Below are positions 2,274 through 46,644 of a stretch of DNA of 53,322 nt, piece by piece. A program made the position numbers and the translations under genes. The DNA comes from an uncultured Methanosarcinales archaeon. Lineage in GTDB: Archaea; Nanobdellota; Nanobdellia; Woesearchaeales; GW2011-AR4. Where the stretch lies: NCBI GenBank assembly GCA_964611745.1, contig CAZTBE010000004.1, positions 1-53,322 on the forward strand. Direction: 5' to 3'. The number at the start of each line of letters is the position of its first letter. Position 1 is the stretch's first letter. The notes under the pieces are model-generated. The model was not told the DNA's origin, did not search any database, and saw nothing but the letters and a program-made list of their open reading frames with translations.

Positions 2274-2592
2274 AAGTAAATACCTATTCTTATACTTATT
2301 TTATTACCTATGAATAAAACTATGTAATAACATATATTTAAAGGTTGTGATTTGCTATAAACAAGTTTATATTTAGAATGTTTGAATGAAAAAAAATGTT
2401 TGTTACTGTTGTAAAAAATCCAAAACCTGTCCAACACACTCTTCCAAGCTTTTTGATGTATCAATTTCAATGCTACCAAAAGGCATAGGAACATATATCG
2501 GTTCTTTTTTTAAACAACGGAATTCCACCAATTTTTAATTGGTGGAATGAGTAGTGCTCGAAAACCACTCCTTATTGGTGGAATTCCGAGCA

Positions 2593-3129
2593 TCAAAAAC
2601 CACCTGAAAGTGAAGCTACTGAAATCATGCCACCCATCTCTGATGGGTGGTTTTTGACAAACCCACCCCAATCTTTAAATTTACCCCAATCTCTTTCATA
2701 GCCTCTTTCTTCTAATCTTTGCCTAATAAGCTCTTCAGGAGCAACACATCTTATTAACTTTAATTTTGAATGTGTTTCTTCTGTTAATATTCTATATCTA
2801 TCAGCCCATCCCTCATTTTGAACTTCAGTTGAATGTTGTGCATTAACCAAAACACTAATACCCCCCATTAAATTATCTCTTGCTTCATTATAAATTATGC
2901 GATATGCCGTTGGTCTTACAGTCCCTTCATAAAATTCCCCGCTTCTTTCTGCAGTGTAACCATCAGCAATACTATCTTTGTCAATATATGCCATATGGAA
3001 ATGATTAATAACGCCAGGACCAGTTCTAACTTCATTATAATCATATCCAGTTGACAAAGTTGTTTTCCCACTACCCGCAATACCTGTAACAATTACTAAA
3101 ACATGCGGGTTAAGATATAATTTTTCCAT
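2593..3129 (-). CDS. P-loop NTPase / small kinase (AAA_33 or zeta-toxin-like)
   Basis: Walker A GIAGSGKTT lies near the N-terminus, and the 178-aa size fits this family. The last ~20 codons and the TGA stop lie inside a palindromic GC-rich element (see findings). Confidence 0.55.
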   Translation of the reverse strand: MEKLYLNPHVLVIVTGIAGSGKTTLSTGYDYNEVRTGPGVINHFHMAYIDKDSIADGYTAERSGEFYEGTVRPTAYRIIYNEARDNLMGGISVLVNAQHSTEVQNEGWADRYRILTEETHSKLKLIRCVAPEELIRQRLEERGYERDWGKFKDWGGFVKNHPSEMGGMISVASLSGGF

Positions 3130-13488: not shown

Positions 13489-13632
13489 CCAGGTTGGTGC
13501 GAAAGTCGGTGCTTGTGCGTAATTTGCCAATTCTTATAGCTCCGCAGGATTGTGCTGTTCGACCTGAGCGAAGCGAAGTTGAGAGGAATGCTAAGGCTTC
13601 GCACAAGCACGAATTAGATTTTTGCACCAACC
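13489..13632. mobile_element. MITE-like GC-rich palindromic insertion (element A)
   Basis: The terminal inverted repeat GGTTGGTGC (13492-13500) pairs with GCACCAACC (13624-13632). An inner perfect 11-bp stem pairs 13509-13519 with 13600-13610. The direct repeat TCTATTTACC flanks the element at 13479-13488 and 13633-13642. Confidence 0.5.
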
Positions 13633-13661
13633 TCTATTTACCAGTTTATTTAAAGGATGCT

Positions 13662-21327: not shown

Positions 21328-21361
21328 TTTTTATGATTATTATTTTATAATTTTAGCCAGA

Positions 21362-23883: not shown

Positions 23884-24066
23884 AAAAACCTCTGGTTTTT
23901 GGCACACTAGAAAATGCATGCATTTTCGGTGTACGGGAAAACTTTGTTTTCCTAGTATCCTGAAAATTCATACTGAATTTTCATGATTTTAAAATCAAAC
24001 ATACTCACTTCGTTCGTAGCATCAAACAAACAATTAATGTTGTTGTTATATACCTGTTTGTTTGAT
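23884..24066. repeat. Cluster of perfect AT-rich palindromes/hairpins upstream of the rps13 operon
   Basis: Perfect stems lie at 23884-23900, 23910-23927, 23936-23952, 23961-23983 and 23984-23997. A 12-bp stem pairs 24021-24032 with 24055-24066. Confidence 0.45.
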
Positions 24067-26215: not shown

Positions 26216-26307
26216 TTTTCAAAACATTTAAACAGCGGAAAAGTTTGCATTAGCAAACTTTTCGAGCTTAAATGTCTTGAAAACCTCACGTTTTCAAAAC
26301 ATTTAAA
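26216..26307. promoter_or_regulatory. Operator-like repeat set in a divergent promoter region
   Basis: TTTTCAAAACATTTAAA occurs at 26216-26232 and 26291-26307. An inverted copy with one mismatch lies at 26268-26283. A perfect 11-bp hairpin lies at 26238-26263. Confidence 0.45.
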
Positions 26308-26546: not shown

Positions 26547-28301
26547 TTACTTTTTTTGCTTATTATAAAGACTTTCTACTATTTTTAATGTAGAAATATC
26601 ATCAGGACTTCTGTCCTGCCTTAATTGTATAATGCGAGGAAAGCGCAACGCAAATCCGCTGCTATAAGTCGGGCTTTTTTGTATCTCTTCATAAGCTACT
26701 TCTATGACAATTTTAGGTTTAGGTATTACTTCTTTTCCTTCTTCTTTCTTTATTAAAGGCTTAAGCAAGTCTGTCATTTCCGCAAAACTCAATCCTTCTT
26801 CCCTCTTTTCCTTAAGCCCTGTGCTTGCCTTTCCAATTTCAAGAAAATTGCATTCTTTATCTCTGCATGCTAATGTGTAGCTGCTTAACCATTTTGACCT
26901 CTTACCTTCCCCCCACTCTGCTTTTACAATAACCAGGTCAAGATTTTCTTTTGTATCTTTTAACTTGACCATAAAACCAGCTCTTGCTCCTGGCTTGTAA
27001 GGAGCATCAAGTTTTTTGATCATAAGCCCTTCATTTCCGGAATCAACAGCTTCTTTGTAAAAATCCTGAACTTCTTTTTTGTCTGAAGTTACAATACTCC
27101 TTGCAATCTTGATTTTCTTTGGAACATTTTTAATTATCTTTTTAATTATCTTTTTTCTTTCCTCAAAAGGCTCATTGATAACACTTTTGTCTTTGTAGTT
27201 TATCACATCAAAAACATTTACCTCAACTGGAAACTCCTGAGACATCTTTTCAATATCATATTTCCTCTTTATTCTCTGGGAAATATTTTGGAATGGAAGG
27301 TATTTGCCAGTTTTTGTACTGTAACCAACTGCCTCAGAATCAATAATGACTTTTTTTTCATGAACAAACTTCCTTACACAATCTACAACTTCTGGAAACT
27401 GCTTAGTGACATTTTCTAATCTTCTTGTAAATACCTTAATTTCATTATTATTTTTATGTATCTGCATCCTCATACCATCATATTTAAACTCAAATTCTGC
27501 TGGCTTTCCACATCTTTCAAAACCCTCATCAATATCTGCAACTTTTAATGCGAGCATTACCTTCAACGGCACTCCAACATTCATTTCCATTTCATCAAGG
27601 CCTTTAAGTCCATGCTTCTTTGCTGCCTCAGCTACTAGAGCAAAATCATTTGTTATATCGTAAGCACGTTGCACAGCATCAACATATTTATTGTAATTTT
27701 CTCTATCTTCCATCTCAACATTATTTTCTTTTTTATTGTAATTTACTTTAATCTCCTTGCCAAAGAATGCCCATACAATAGCATCTCTTATGCTTCCCTC
27801 TCCAACTCCTATGCGCATATCATTAAGAATTGTCCTTACAATATACTTAGCTTCGTTAGGCTTTGCAGATGTTAAAAGTTCGGCTACTAAAGATATTTTT
27901 TTATCAACAGAACCTTGCCCTTCAATTGTGACAAGTTTTCTGAGATTGTTAAGAACTTTTTTTACAGTAAGCTCATGAGAACCTAATGTATGCTGTTTTT
28001 TTTTCTTAATTAAATTATGGGAAACGGTTCCTAAATCTCCAGTTTTCTTCCATTCTGAATTTACTCTTTCTTTGGATTCTCCTGATGCCACACTAATAGC
28101 CTTAAGCATCATCTTTGATGCCATTCCAATTTCCCTTTCATCCCATCTTGGAAAAACTCTTCCTTCCATCAAAAGAATTGTTGTTCCCAAATCCACTATG
28201 CTTACATCTTTCAGAAATTCTGAAATAATATGGACATGCCCAAGCCTCTTTGTTGTACTTTCCAGAGCATCATACACATCCGCAAGTTTCGAGTATTGCA
28301 T
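26547..28301 (-). CDS. lig: ATP-dependent DNA ligase
   Basis: The adenylation motif I is EFKYDG. The 584-aa archaeal/eukaryal Lig1-type architecture ends in a typical C-terminal OB-fold sequence (LRFPRIIQLRQDR). Confidence 0.95.
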   Translation of the reverse strand: MQYSKLADVYDALESTTKRLGHVHIISEFLKDVSIVDLGTTILLMEGRVFPRWDEREIGMASKMMLKAISVASGESKERVNSEWKKTGDLGTVSHNLIKKKKQHTLGSHELTVKKVLNNLRKLVTIEGQGSVDKKISLVAELLTSAKPNEAKYIVRTILNDMRIGVGEGSIRDAIVWAFFGKEIKVNYNKKENNVEMEDRENYNKYVDAVQRAYDITNDFALVAEAAKKHGLKGLDEMEMNVGVPLKVMLALKVADIDEGFERCGKPAEFEFKYDGMRMQIHKNNNEIKVFTRRLENVTKQFPEVVDCVRKFVHEKKVIIDSEAVGYSTKTGKYLPFQNISQRIKRKYDIEKMSQEFPVEVNVFDVINYKDKSVINEPFEERKKIIKKIIKNVPKKIKIARSIVTSDKKEVQDFYKEAVDSGNEGLMIKKLDAPYKPGARAGFMVKLKDTKENLDLVIVKAEWGEGKRSKWLSSYTLACRDKECNFLEIGKASTGLKEKREEGLSFAEMTDLLKPLIKKEEGKEVIPKPKIVIEVAYEEIQKSPTYSSGFALRFPRIIQLRQDRSPDDISTLKIVESLYNKQKK

Positions 28302-28341
28302 ATTAAATTACAATATTAAGAAGTTTAAAAATATGTCGAAA

Positions 28342-28620
28342 TGTACGTTCCCGATTTTACGTTGCCGTAAAACACTGTGGGGTGCTTTGCACCCCACTAC
28401 TAGTGTTCAGTTGTACGTTCCCGTACAACAGTATGCAATGCTTTGCATTGCACGATCCAAGACGGATTAGTACGTGTGGTACGAAGTACCACACACTGGT
28501 GTGCAGGAATGCACAACAGTGTATAGGGATGCTTTCAGCATCCCGAGACTGAGCATTCAAAAGAGTCCCGTTTCGGGACGTCGCAGACGTCCCCAGACGC
28601 TGTTTTACGGGCACGTAAAA
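28342..28620. repeat. Array of ten perfect GC-rich stem-loops (unclassified)
   Basis: Hairpins lie at 28355-28372, 28377-28397, 28411-28428, 28434-28452, 28474-28494, 28500-28515, 28526-28544, 28565-28579, 28575-28593 and 28603-28620. The 12-mer TGTACGTTCCCG is repeated at 28342 and 28412. Confidence 0.6.
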
Positions 28621-28657
28621 CAATAGATTTATTAATAATAAACTCAAGAATATACTT

Positions 28658-29320
28658 ATGGAAGTATTTGACGCTATAAGATCAAGAAGAAGCATAAGGA
28701 AATACAAGGATAAGCAGGTTGCATGGGATAATATTGTCACAATAATGCAGGCTGGCAAATATGCTCCTTCTGCAGGTAATCTGCAGAATTGGAAGTTTAT
28801 TGTGGTCAAGAACGATGAGACAAGAAAAGCCATTGCAAAAGCTTGTCTGCAACAGGAATGGATGGAAGTCGCTCCTGTTTTTATTGTAGTTGTTGCAGAA
28901 CCGGAAAAAGCTGAAAGATATTATGGGAGCAGAGGCGCAAGGCTTTATACAATACAAGGATGCTCTGCTGCAATAGAAAATATGCTTCTTACTGCTCATA
29001 GTTTAGGATTAGGAACCTGCTGGATAGGGGCTTTTGATGAAGATGAGATTTGGAGAGTTCTTGGACTGCCGGAAGAAAAATCAGTGCAGGCTGTTATTAC
29101 AATTGGTTATGCTGATGAAAACCCAGAACCGCCTCCCAAGTATAGAATAGAGCATATGATGTTTTTTGAAAAATGGTGGGGCCGCTTGGAATTTCCAAAA
29201 ACACATCTTGGTTGGTGGAGTGCAGGCAATAAAAGAATAGTAGATGAAGGCAAGAAGTTAGCCAAAAAAGTCCATAAAAAAGTCAAAGAGCATGTTAAGA
29301 AAAAGTTAAGTAAAAAGTAA
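28658..29320 (+). CDS. Nitroreductase-family flavoprotein with a Lys-rich C-terminal tail
   Basis: RRSIRKYKD, PSAGNLQNW and LGLGTCWIG are nitroreductase motifs. The tail is KKLAKKVHKKVKEHVKKKLSKK. Confidence 0.85.
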   Translation: MEVFDAIRSRRSIRKYKDKQVAWDNIVTIMQAGKYAPSAGNLQNWKFIVVKNDETRKAIAKACLQQEWMEVAPVFIVVVAEPEKAERYYGSRGARLYTIQGCSAAIENMLLTAHSLGLGTCWIGAFDEDEIWRVLGLPEEKSVQAVITIGYADENPEPPPKYRIEHMMFFEKWWGRLEFPKTHLGWWSAGNKRIVDEGKKLAKKVHKKVKEHVKKKLSKK

Positions 29321-29365
29321 ATTACTATTTCTTATTTACTAAATAAATAAAAAACAGAAATATAT

Positions 29366-29447
29366 CTCAGTCTCGGGATACCGTAGGTATCCCAATACGC
29401 TGTTTTACGGGCACGTAAAAAAATAAAAAAATCCCTCTTGCGAGGGA
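29366..29447. repeat. Hairpin modules downstream of the nitroreductase, sharing sequence with the upstream array
   Basis: CTCAGTCTC plus GGGATACC-GTA-GGTATCCC lies at 29366-29393. ACGCTGTTTTACGGGCACGTAAAA at 29397-29420 is identical to 28597-28620. TCCCTC-TTGC-GAGGGA lies at 29432-29447. Confidence 0.55.
29421..29447 (-). terminator. Hairpin plus T-tract (minus-strand sense), candidate distal ftsZ terminator
   Basis: The minus strand reads TCCCTCGCAAGAGGGA followed by TTTTTTTATTTTTTT. Confidence 0.45.
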
Positions 29448-29504
29448 CCAAATGCCTCCATACTTAAAAACGTTGGGGGTGGTTTTCTTAGAAATGAAGG
29501 CATA

Positions 29505-29527
29505 GAAAAAAACACCTAAAAGGTGTC
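29505..29527 (-). terminator. Hairpin plus T7 tract, candidate ftsZ terminator
   Basis: The minus strand reads ACACC-TTTTA-GGTGT followed by TTTTTTT, ~22 nt after the ftsZ stop. Confidence 0.5.
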
Positions 29528-29548
29528 ACCACAAAGACTAAAGGGTGA

Positions 29549-30625
29549 TCATTCATCTAGGATTTCTATACCGAGTTCCTCACTTATTTGTTGAACCTCC
29601 GGACTTGCCGCAAGTGGCTTTTGCTTGCCCAAGATACATGGGCTCTTTACACCAGTTACGATTGTCATTACAGTAAGCTTTCCTTTCATATCTTCTGAAA
29701 TTCTGGCTCCCCAGATGACATTTGCATCTGTATCTAAACTTTCTGTAACTAATTCGCCTACTTTGCTTATCTCATCAAGTGTCATATCAGGACCACCTAT
29801 TACATGCAACAAAGCTCCGGTTGCACCTTTGTAATTGATGTCCAGAAGCGGATTTTGCAAAGCTCCTTTTACAGCTTCTTCTACTCTGTTGTTTGTATCT
29901 GAAGAACCCACACCAATAGCTGCTACTCCACCATTCTTCATAATTGCCCTTACATCCGCATAATCCAGGTTAACTAAGCTTGGCACTGCAATAGTTTCCA
30001 CAATACCTTTTATCATTGTTGCTACAAGCTCATTAGCTACTGCAAATGCTTGTTGTATTGGCAAATTACCTGCAATATTGACTAATCTATTATTGTCAAT
30101 TACAATCACTGTATCAGAAACATCTCTTAGCTGTTCCAAACCAAACTCTGCTTTATCTACCCTGGCTTTTTCAATTTTAAAAGGCATGGTAACAGTTCCA
30201 ATAACTATAGCACCAGTATCTCTAGCTACTTGAGCAACTATTGGCGCTCCACCAGTGCCAGTTCCTCCACCCATGCCAGCGCATACAAAAACCATATCAG
30301 ATTCTTTTAAACATTGTTTTAACTCTTGCAAGCTTTCTTTTGCAGACTCAGCACCTTTCTCAGGAAAACCTCCACATCCTAAGCCTCTTGTTACACCAGT
30401 CCCCAACAAAAATTTTCTGTCTGCATTTATTATATTCAAATGCTGCTGGTCTGTGTTACAGGCTAAAATCTCAGCCCCTTTAACACCTTTATTATATAGC
30501 CAACCAACCATATTGTTGCCAGCTCCCCCTACCCCTATAACTCTTATATTTGCTTGTCCTACATCTACACTTTCTACTTTATTCTCTTGGCTAGTTTTAA
30601 TTGCGTTTTCTACCAAAAAATCCAT
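29549..30625 (-). CDS. ftsZ: Cell division GTPase FtsZ
   Basis: The tubulin signature GGGTGTGGAP is present, together with VIGVGGAGNNMV and NVIWGARI. Confidence 0.95.
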   Translation of the reverse strand: MDFLVENAIKTSQENKVESVDVGQANIRVIGVGGAGNNMVGWLYNKGVKGAEILACNTDQQHLNIINADRKFLLGTGVTRGLGCGGFPEKGAESAKESLQELKQCLKESDMVFVCAGMGGGTGTGGAPIVAQVARDTGAIVIGTVTMPFKIEKARVDKAEFGLEQLRDVSDTVIVIDNNRLVNIAGNLPIQQAFAVANELVATMIKGIVETIAVPSLVNLDYADVRAIMKNGGVAAIGVGSSDTNNRVEEAVKGALQNPLLDINYKGATGALLHVIGGPDMTLDEISKVGELVTESLDTDANVIWGARISEDMKGKLTVMTIVTGVKSPCILGKQKPLAASPEVQQISEELGIEILDE

Positions 30626-33126: not shown

Positions 33127-33150
33127 TAGCTTTGATGTCATTTAACTTAC

Positions 33151-33242
33151 AGCCCCGTAGTCTAGCGGTCAAGGATGTCGGCTTTTGGAGCCGATGGCCC
33201 AGGTTCGAATTGCAACTAACAACGAAAGTCCTGGCGGGGCTA
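33151..33242 (+). tRNA. tRNA-Gln (anticodon UUG) with a 19-nt non-canonical intron in the T-loop region
   Basis: The acceptor stem pairs AGCCCCG with CGGGGCT. The D-arm is GTCT/GGAT with an AGCGGTCAA loop. The anticodon stem pairs TCGGC with GCCGA, and the loop TTTTGGA gives the anticodon at 33185-33187. The T-stem pairs CCAGG (33199-33203) with CCTGG (33230-33234), and the T-loop is TTCGAAT. The insert at 33211-33229 can form a BHB-like motif. A T-tract follows the gene. Confidence 0.8.
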
Positions 33243-33398
33243 TTTTTCAATAACATTTATAAACCAAATAATAATCCCAATCATAATCAAGAGATAAGTC
33301 GGTTTGTGGAAAGCGGCAAATCCTATGGATTTGTAATTCACGGCTCGCTTATACTGGAGACAAATAATTCTTTGTTTCCGTAATATTGTTTAATAAAA

Positions 33399-46437: not shown

Positions 46438-46599
46438 GGCTCTGTCCTAAATGAAGGTTGCCATCAATTTGTGAGCACCTTTTTGCTAAACATTGAGCTG
46501 ACAAGAGGGATGGCTCCTACGGAGAATGTCAGCCTTAACTTGCAATATTAAGTGCGAACCGATGGCAACCCAAGCGTTAGCGAGATTTAGGACAGAGCC
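46438..46599. mobile_element. MITE-like GC-rich palindromic insertion (element B)
   Basis: Perfect 15-bp terminal inverted repeats pair GGCTCTGTCCTAAAT (46438-46452) with ATTTAGGACAGAGCC (46585-46599). A second perfect 10-bp stem pairs 46456-46465 with 46561-46570. Identical 9-bp flanks TTTCTTATG lie at 46429-46437 and 46600-46608. Confidence 0.65.
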
Positions 46600-46644
46600 T
46601 TTCTTATGGTAAAATTTTAATATTAGTCTTGTATTTTATTGGCA

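Follow-up and report, generated by a model that had tools for sequence, protein, structure and literature searches.

Mitochondria of Allomyces contain double-hairpin elements and those of yeast contain GC clusters, and Rickettsia genomes carry palindromic elements of ~100–150 bp that can sit in frame inside protein-coding genes. Sponge mitochondrial DNA contains repetitive hairpin-forming elements (PMC2800124). Bacterial repetitive extragenic palindromes (REPs) are recognised by a GT[AG]G or CGTC tetranucleotide at one end of the palindrome (PMC3733652). Miniature inverted-repeat transposable elements, or MITEs, are known in archaea (reviewed in PMC10969869), and a census of 8220 archaeal genomes placed a Woesearchaeal genome among those with the highest MITE densities, at 105 per Mb (PMC11602168). 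Here we analysed 53,322 nt of DNA from an uncultured archaeon assigned by GTDB to the Woesearchaeales (contig CAZTBE010000004.1 of assembly GCA_964611745.1, hereafter the window). It contains a GC-rich hairpin array between the genes of an ATP-dependent DNA ligase (lig) and a nitroreductase. The array consists of five double-hairpin units, related units recur at other loci and in other genomes, and the whole is probably a pile-up of MITE-like palindromic elements.

Results

Sequence features of the hairpin array

The array (28340–28622, no strand assigned) lies in the 356-nt spacer between lig (26547–28301, minus strand) and the nitroreductase gene (28658–29320, plus strand), which are divergent, both pointing outward as a first-pass annotation of the letters had stated. 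That annotation also called the region GC-rich, and the GC content is indeed 49.5%, against 32.9% for the whole window. Counting stems of at least 6 bp with loops of 3–4 nt, these 283 nt hold 11 perfect stem-loops; 5000 dinucleotide-preserving shuffles gave 0.18 on average and never more than 3. The stems are flawless Watson-Crick helices of 6–9 bp closed by loops of 3–4 nt, and the folding z-score against shuffles is about −10 on either strand.

All ten hairpins listed at first pass are present at their coordinates. Most of their stems have the length given there, and three are 1–2 bp longer (28410–28429 with 8 bp; 28601–28622 with 9 bp). The 12-mer TGTACGTTCCCG was rightly reported at 28342 and 28412, and the recurring linker motif was also found, as CACTGTG and ACAGTG(T) at 28373–28379 and 28516–28522 and as ACAGTA at 28428–28433. 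The likeness of the CACTGTG linker to a recombination-signal heptamer is a resemblance only and was set aside as unsupported. The 356-nt spacer is 100% identical in nine independent metagenome or metagenome-assembled genome (MAG) contigs from TARA, JGI and GenBank. An assembly artefact, which the earlier reading had left open, is therefore excluded.

Against Rfam 15 the whole window gave nothing, either at the gathering score or with the limit relaxed to E = 0.5. When the region alone was scanned to E = 10, the best match was a chance miRNA match (E = 0.0028), far below its gathering score, and a tRNA scan gave no matches. The window comes from a marine DPANN archaeon and is made up of housekeeping DNA, with genes for the ligase, FtsZ, a ribosomal protein operon, LeuRS and purine and folate enzymes. 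The closest ligases (82–85% identity) come from MAGs labelled Woesearchaeota or Nanoarchaeota.

Architecture of the units

The ten hairpins are real and not independent. They pair into five homologous two-hairpin units, a pairing that was missed at first pass. The basic unit is ~55–66 nt long and, as single-stranded DNA of either strand, folds into two perfect hairpins. The alpha hairpin has the consensus TTKTACG-YNCC-CGTAMAA with a 4-nt loop, which reads YNCC in the unit's own orientation. It is followed by the linker CAGYGTATW, which two units have in a reduced form (CACT or AGTA), by a G-rich beta hairpin of 7–9 bp with a variable interior, and by the tail GAGACTGAG. A unit may stand alone, two may form a tail-to-tail inverted pair of ~125–170 nt, and the array combines five. 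In the composites one unit makes up each of the inverted ends of ~50 nt, whereas single units have only the degenerate pair CCGTAAAA(Y)AG / TTTTACGG, which lies off the exact termini. Neither the units (55–66 nt) nor the composites (125–170 nt) contain an element-specific open reading frame (ORF). A covariance model, R1, was built from 13 units and recovers all known copies at 35–86 bits, among them the five units of the array.

U1 (28354–28411, plus strand) consists of an alpha hairpin at 28355–28372, the linker CACT, a beta hairpin at 28377–28397 and a tail; it scores 35 bits with R1, and its DNA fold has z = −5.8. To its left lies the first copy of TGTACGTTCCCG (28342–28353, plus strand), which corresponds to an alpha hairpin's 5′ arm and loop plus 2 nt and is a candidate for the target-site duplication of U1. 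The right copy forms the first 12 nt of U2 (28412–28473, plus strand; alpha 28410–28429, beta 28434–28452; 53.7 bits), whose tail contains a weak GATCC/GGATT hairpin. U1 and U2 repeat with a 56-nt period and differ by three compensatory pairs in beta.

U3 (28474–28515, minus strand; 53.1 bits) is inverted, with beta at 28474–28494 and alpha at 28500–28515, where the loop reads TTCC on the minus strand. Hairpin 6 (28500–28515) serves as the alpha hairpin of both U3 and U4, and it shows GGAA on the plus strand because it is part of the inverted U3. Around it, at 28493–28522, the sequence has the symmetry ACACTGG-hairpin-ACAGTGT. U4 (28500–28553, plus strand; 70 bits) continues with the linker ACAGTGTATA, beta at 28526–28544 and the tail GAGACTGAG, and is homologous to units in contigs L131 and L107 and elsewhere. 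U5 (28565–28622, minus strand; 78 bits) is again inverted, with alpha at 28601–28622, a linker, beta at 28575–28593 and a tail hairpin at 28565–28579. U4 and U5 stand tail to tail, and the same composite form is found in L107.

A sixth, solitary unit, U6 (29355–29420, minus strand), lies ~750 bp from the array, between the nitroreductase stop codon and a conserved element, RNA-like in character, that lies downstream of ftsZ. The unit is 66 nt long, forms two hairpins in the DNA fold and scores 83 bits with R1. U6 is inserted in the terminal T-run of that element. The element itself (29421–29551, minus strand) is ~125 nt long, follows the ftsZ stop codon directly and is conserved in ten relatives. 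Two of its hairpins show compensatory change. It closes with a GNRA-looped hairpin followed by a T-run and has no Rfam match.

The lig/nitroreductase spacer in relatives

The lig-containing loci of 80 DPANN genomes (L011–L090; lig 46–85% identical, only about ten above 75%) were used for comparison. In L012 and L014, where lig is 83% identical, the two genes are also divergent, the promoters are ~100 nt apart and nothing array-like lies between them. The difference in spacer length therefore amounts to an insertion of ~280 nt. On both sides the array is bounded by what appear, from their position and conservation, to be core promoters. The predicted lig promoter (28302–28339, minus strand; TATA/BRE-like TTTAAAAATAT..GTCG) forms the left boundary, and its sequence is kept in L011–L016 and L035, where it directly adjoins their short spacers. 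The predicted nitroreductase promoter (28618–28657, plus strand; AAAACAATAGATTTATTAAT) forms the right boundary and is kept as CAAAACAATAAATTTATTAAT in L012, L014, L015, L016 and L035; the 3′ arm of the last hairpin overlaps the ancestral AAAAC. The first-pass annotation had considered that the region might simply be a promoter conserved unchanged in all relatives, which the ~100-nt spacers of L012 and L014 contradict. The array is an insertion and neither a conserved promoter nor a known RNA.

Other, unrelated inserts occupy the same promoter spacer in L016 and L035 (~190 nt) and in L015 (~560 nt). Those of L016 and L035 agree in their right-hand flank and in G-rich motifs, for example GGGGTGGCGGGTGGG in L016 and GGGGGTGAGAAGAAGGGTG in L035. 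Since unrelated inserts are found in several relatives, the spacer is a general hot spot for small insertions.

The nitroreductase gene is flanked by a 24-nt direct repeat. A reading of this gene as an integron gene cassette with attC was rejected: it is syntenic and 84–86% identical in relatives that lack the elements.

Dispersal to other loci and genomes

Related hairpins were sought elsewhere and found at further loci and in other genomes. In ~76 kb sampled from the species of the window, eight units occur at three loci, two of them at the third. The third locus has the order DOT1-like gene, two-unit composite, GC-rich RNA-like element, HTH/DUF4443 gene. Metagenome data were scanned with the base of the beta hairpin plus the tail; this gave 36 stretches, of which 31 were chance matches in high-GC coding DNA and were discarded. 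Six further units were obtained in five unrelated gene contexts on related low-GC metagenome contigs. One is directly before the ATG of an Lhr-type helicase gene (L092), a two-unit composite precedes an orc1/cdc6-like gene (L107), one has entered the first codons of a CobW-like ORF in frame (L112), one sits on the start codon of rpL18e (L114) and one lies between a transporter gene and the GlyRS promoter (L123). At L112:1859–1945 the unit stands in frame between codon 4 and the CobW domain, MKKT[ENISVSGYRRYPNTLFYGHVKT]PITIITGYLGAGKTT. The ORF has thereby gained ~22 residues, and the only start codon in its frame lies upstream of the inserted sequence.

L114 is syntenic with the ribosomal operon of the window, with 72–76% nucleotide identity in coding DNA. 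Its unit and U6, which stand at non-orthologous places, are 92% identical over 78 nt and agree at 54 of 55 positions in the core. The units are thus far better conserved than the genomes that surround them.

A metagenome scan with an alpha-side 21-mer (MACGCTGTTTTACGGGCACGT), limited to new contexts, gave no matches. Four patterns searched in viral contigs and BLAST searches of plasmids and phages also gave none, so there is no sign of a viral or plasmid vector in these collections. Peptides from the two always-open frames of the unit found nothing in a protein database search, from which we conclude that in-frame insertions are rare or are not called as genes. A walk outward from the window added 3 kb at one end only, the end protein at the other having no database record.

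Contig L009 matches the window only to the right of position 28513. Its neighbour protein is placed at the separate third locus by seven other assemblies, two of which also contain a window-type contig. In L009 the two loci meet at 37 nt whose sequence they share exactly. Since its left half belongs to a separate locus in those seven assemblies, a strain-level rearrangement was downgraded, and L009 is most likely a chimeric assembly or a rare recombinant. An Rfam scan of L009 gave only chance miRNA-like matches.

Target-site duplications

The L114 unit is flanked by the 9-bp repeat AAAATGAAA, which duplicates the L18e start codon, and it stands between this gene and its promoter. The unit is missing from the window's own rpoD–L18e spacer, where the empty site is found at 21328–21361 (...CATAAAAAATGAAACGAACAGG). 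The composite of the third locus (L131) is flanked by AAAATTTAAAAA of 12 bp, or 17 bp with one mismatch, and is missing from L139 and L140, whose neighbour protein is 87% identical and whose sites are empty. U6 is flanked by the 10-bp AAATAAAAAA at 29345–29354 and 29421–29430; four relatives have a single A-rich site, and the unit is missing from the orthologous spacers of L011, L015, L016 and L035. For the L123 unit a 10-bp repeat, AACAAATTTT, was read in L123 alone. These duplications of 9–12 bp indicate staggered cuts of the target followed by fill-in.

The 12-bp repeat TGTACGTTCCCG at the nested U1 is part of the alpha hairpin of U2. When 28354–28411 is cut out together with one copy of the 12-mer (70 nt), the TGTACG/CGTACA alpha hairpin of U2 stands directly after the left flank. 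This reading of the sequence suggests that U1 inserted inside the alpha hairpin of U2.

Stem maintenance

In the alignment of 13 units, 98.5% of 195 cells are paired. Ten of the 15 pairs have changed on both sides, in 37 cells, and no one-sided change of the G-U type was found. None of 500 shuffles reached the observed covariation and no slid register came close. The stems are therefore maintained at the DNA level by compensatory Watson-Crick changes, and the first-pass view of DNA-level palindromes rather than an RNA fold agrees with the lack of G-U pairs. Template switching within hairpins is established for quasi-palindromes in bacteria. Either transposition may need the hairpins, or template switching may copy a mutation from one arm to the other, and both would keep the stems perfect.

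Other structured elements

A GC-rich element of 147–195 nt with a long closing stem (GGTTGGTGCGAAAGTCGG...GCACCAACC) is present at window 13490–13636 and at L131:9785–9975 (equal to L009:1557–1752). It has at least two copies per genome, 83–86% identical, and no Rfam match. This element occupies the DOT1/HTH spacer at the third locus, and a different one fills the same slot in the relative L139. The L139 copy (L139:830–1020) is related to window 46440–46600, a second GC-rich element closed by GCTCTGTCCTAAAT...ATTTAGGACAGAGC, which may be another small mobile or RNA-gene family. Adjoining the third locus, L131:11330–20122 carries seven minus-strand genes, one of 1444 amino acids, with no Pfam family on record, and could be variable or of foreign origin.

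A tRNA-Pro(UGG)-like gene with ~18 nt extra in the T-arm region lies at window 33140–33245 and was missed by ARAGORN and Rfam; L114:1080–1290 is a similar tRNA-like gene with large inserts. Hairpins based on CCACC/GGTGG, e.g. GGAATTCCACCAATTTTTAATTGGTGGAAT, are found at window 2512–2660 and L114:4480–4517. One of them is 97% identical to the L114 copy although the genomes are ~74% identical, and contigs L127–L130 end near 2512–2660, suggesting a repeat that breaks assemblies. AT-rich hairpin arrays of the type GAAAAY-loop-RTTTTC lie at window 23884–23983 and 26238–26297, upstream of rpS13 and between divergent NTP-transferase and LiaI-like genes. In L011, L014, L015, L016 and L035 one to three AT-rich hairpins of different sequence occupy the corresponding place downstream of lig.

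Discussion

The units have inserted, have dispersed between loci and genomes, duplicate their target and keep their stems by compensatory change. We are fairly confident that the array is a pile-up of MITE-like palindromic elements that were mobilised in trans and that accumulated by nested insertion. The elements integrate into A/T-rich intergenic DNA or near start codons and duplicate 9–12 bp, which points to staggered cuts in the target and fill-in. At lig they would occupy the sole dispensable DNA between two divergent core promoters, where the array would have grown by repeated and nested insertion, with U1 placed inside the alpha hairpin of U2. Inverted duplication around hairpins would also have contributed, given the symmetric ACACTGG-hairpin-ACAGTGT at 28493–28522 and the tail-to-tail U4/U5 composite that recurs in L107. 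The mobilising enzyme is probably a trans-acting transposase of the DDE staggered-cut type encoded elsewhere. The evidence requires no host function.

We regard the units as a new family within an already known kind of selfish DNA and not as a novel RNA or regulatory machine. Of the three explanations offered at first pass, a selfish palindrome population of the REP or mitochondrial GC-cluster type was right in kind, since the insertion is lacking in relatives and the units recur elsewhere. The accompanying remark that no archaeal element of this organisation had been described holds for the family itself: our literature search found no description of it, nor any work pairing MITEs with DPANN taxa in detail. 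It does not hold for the kind, MITEs being already catalogued in archaea (PMC11602168).

Like the prokaryotic MITEs (for example Sulfolobus SM1–SM4, the Neisseria Correia elements and the Woesearchaeal MITEs of PMC11602168), the units are small, non-coding, multi-copy and intergenic, differ in presence between relatives and are flanked by target-site duplications, and the two-unit composites have long imperfect inverted ends. Unlike them, single units lie at the small extreme (55–66 nt) and have no clean terminal inverted repeats, what is conserved is a pair of perfect hairpins in the interior, the duplication varies between 9 and 12 bp and no parent insertion sequence is known. With bacterial REPs, their clusters (bacterial interspersed mosaic elements, BIMEs) and their doublets (REPINs), the units share short GC-rich palindromes, clusters of alternating orientation, inverted doublets and far better conservation than the surroundings. 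They differ in having target-site duplications, no GT[AG]G/CGTC tag, an archaeal host and no gene seen for a REP-associated tyrosine transposase (RAYT). Mitochondrial hairpin elements are likewise GC-rich modules of one or two hairpins in AT-rich spacers of small compact genomes, with lineage-specific invasions, large spacer-size differences between close relatives and no known mobilising enzyme, but the host domain is another and there is no sequence relationship. To our knowledge, organellar hairpin elements are not generally reported with target duplications of 9–12 bp. The Rickettsia palindromic elements resemble the units as small palindromes of a reduced genome, and the in-frame case of L112 recalls them; the units are shorter, and the in-frame case is single, the peptide search having found none. 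In architecture the units come closest to the mitochondrial hairpin elements of sponges and Allomyces and to bacterial REP/BIME clusters; the duplications place the family with MITEs.

Several observations weigh against a MITE-like origin. The duplication varies in length from 9 to 12 bp, possibly 17, several of the duplications are A-rich with ambiguous limits, and the L112 unit has no clear one. The extreme ends of single units are poorly conserved and have no clean terminal inverted repeats, the conserved part being internal. R1 finds no extra copies in the rest of the window or in the lig loci L011–L090; few loci were sampled per genome, and three loci in 76 kb give no reliable genome-wide copy number. 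No transposase, integrase or HUH gene is present in the ~76 kb of the species, as judged from window ORFs of at least 100 amino acids and the gene calls of L131.

It is possible, if rather unlikely, that the units are moved by undescribed machinery, with an enzyme perhaps from the host cell, a virus or a domesticated single-copy gene. Internal polar hairpins (loop YNCC) together with a duplication of 9–12 (possibly 17) bp fit neither HUH enzymes nor classical DDE MITEs. In a reduced DPANN genome with few insertion sequences, such machinery would be the archaeal equivalent of the REPIN-RAYT or mitochondrial GC-cluster systems.

The second explanation of the first-pass annotation, in which a domesticated HUH tyrosine transposase (RAYT) or an IS200/IS605 TnpA encoded elsewhere would act on the hairpins as single-stranded DNA, is improbable. 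The palindromes are short, GC-rich and intergenic and cluster in alternating orientation as in BIMEs, recognition is apparently by hairpins and not by terminal sequences, the stems are perfect on both strands, and the inverted unit pairs recall REPIN doublets. As far as we know, IS200/IS605 and RAYT chemistry leaves no target-site duplication, and RAYT-type transposases are described mainly in bacteria, whereas the host here is archaeal. The 9–12-bp duplications, checked against empty sites, therefore disfavour both. In the unit alignment no conserved GT[AG]G or CGTC tag stands at a fixed palindrome end, the stems starting with TTTTACG, GTGGGG, TGCAAT, GTGTGG, GGGAT or GGGAC, and no Y1/HUH gene was seen in 76 kb of the species. 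IS200/IS605-derived palindrome-associated elements, which have subterminal hairpins and insert 3′ of a fixed 4–5-nt target without duplication, were rejected: the hairpins are present, but the targets differ (AAAATGAAA, AACAAATTTT, AAAATTTAAAAA) and are duplicated.

We give very little credence to a local origin, in which template switching or snap-back synthesis during replication or repair would have made the hairpins and ectopic repair the copies elsewhere. The palindromes are perfect without intermediates, the sequence is symmetric around hairpin 6 and between U4 and U5, and template switching probably helps to keep the stems perfect. Against this, a 55-nt unit is nearly identical at unrelated loci in species that are 72–76% identical in coding DNA, for which de novo origin in place is insufficient, and the insertions have clean boundaries and duplicated target sequence.

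Equally slight is the chance that the host has co-opted the array as a cis element, a cruciform sink for the negative supercoils that the two divergent promoters generate or a protein docking site, which would be compatible with a mobile origin. The array lies exactly between two predicted divergent core promoters, a second, AT-rich kind of hairpin array occupies other promoter-proximal spacers at the same places in relatives, and there is no microdiversity in nine assemblies. Relatives do well with a 100-nt spacer and no array, however, the other copies stand at unrelated sites (behind a terminator, over a start codon, within an ORF), and identity among assemblies may merely reflect a clonal population.

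Least credible of all is a functional structured RNA or RNA hairpin array transcribed from the spacer, the third suggestion made at first pass together with a docking array: the region is an extremely stable GC-rich island in an AT-rich genome, its stems are preserved by compensatory changes and other GC-rich islands of the window resemble RNA genes, but there is no Rfam match above chance, both known promoters face away and no TATA-like stretch lies within the array, the orthologous spacers of close relatives lack it, the units stand in both orientations relative to neighbouring genes, no G-U pair occurs among the 195 cells, and target-site duplications are present.

On the preferred reading, MITE-like elements mobilised in trans, a family of miniature palindromic elements is actively spreading in marine DPANN archaea with small genomes. 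Its members insert between promoters, over start codons (as at rpL18e in L114) and even in frame within a gene (the CobW-like ORF of L112), and have enlarged spacers about threefold between close relatives. Their identical repeats of 37 nt are long enough to mislead assemblers or to promote rearrangement, as in L009. Annotators should note that a GC-rich island of hairpins in these AT-rich genomes need not be an RNA gene. The double-sided stem changes without G-U pairs are a clean natural example of selection or correction of hairpins at the DNA level. If the mobilising enzyme proves unusual, the family would be a tractable archaeal analogue of the REPIN/RAYT or organellar GC-cluster systems.

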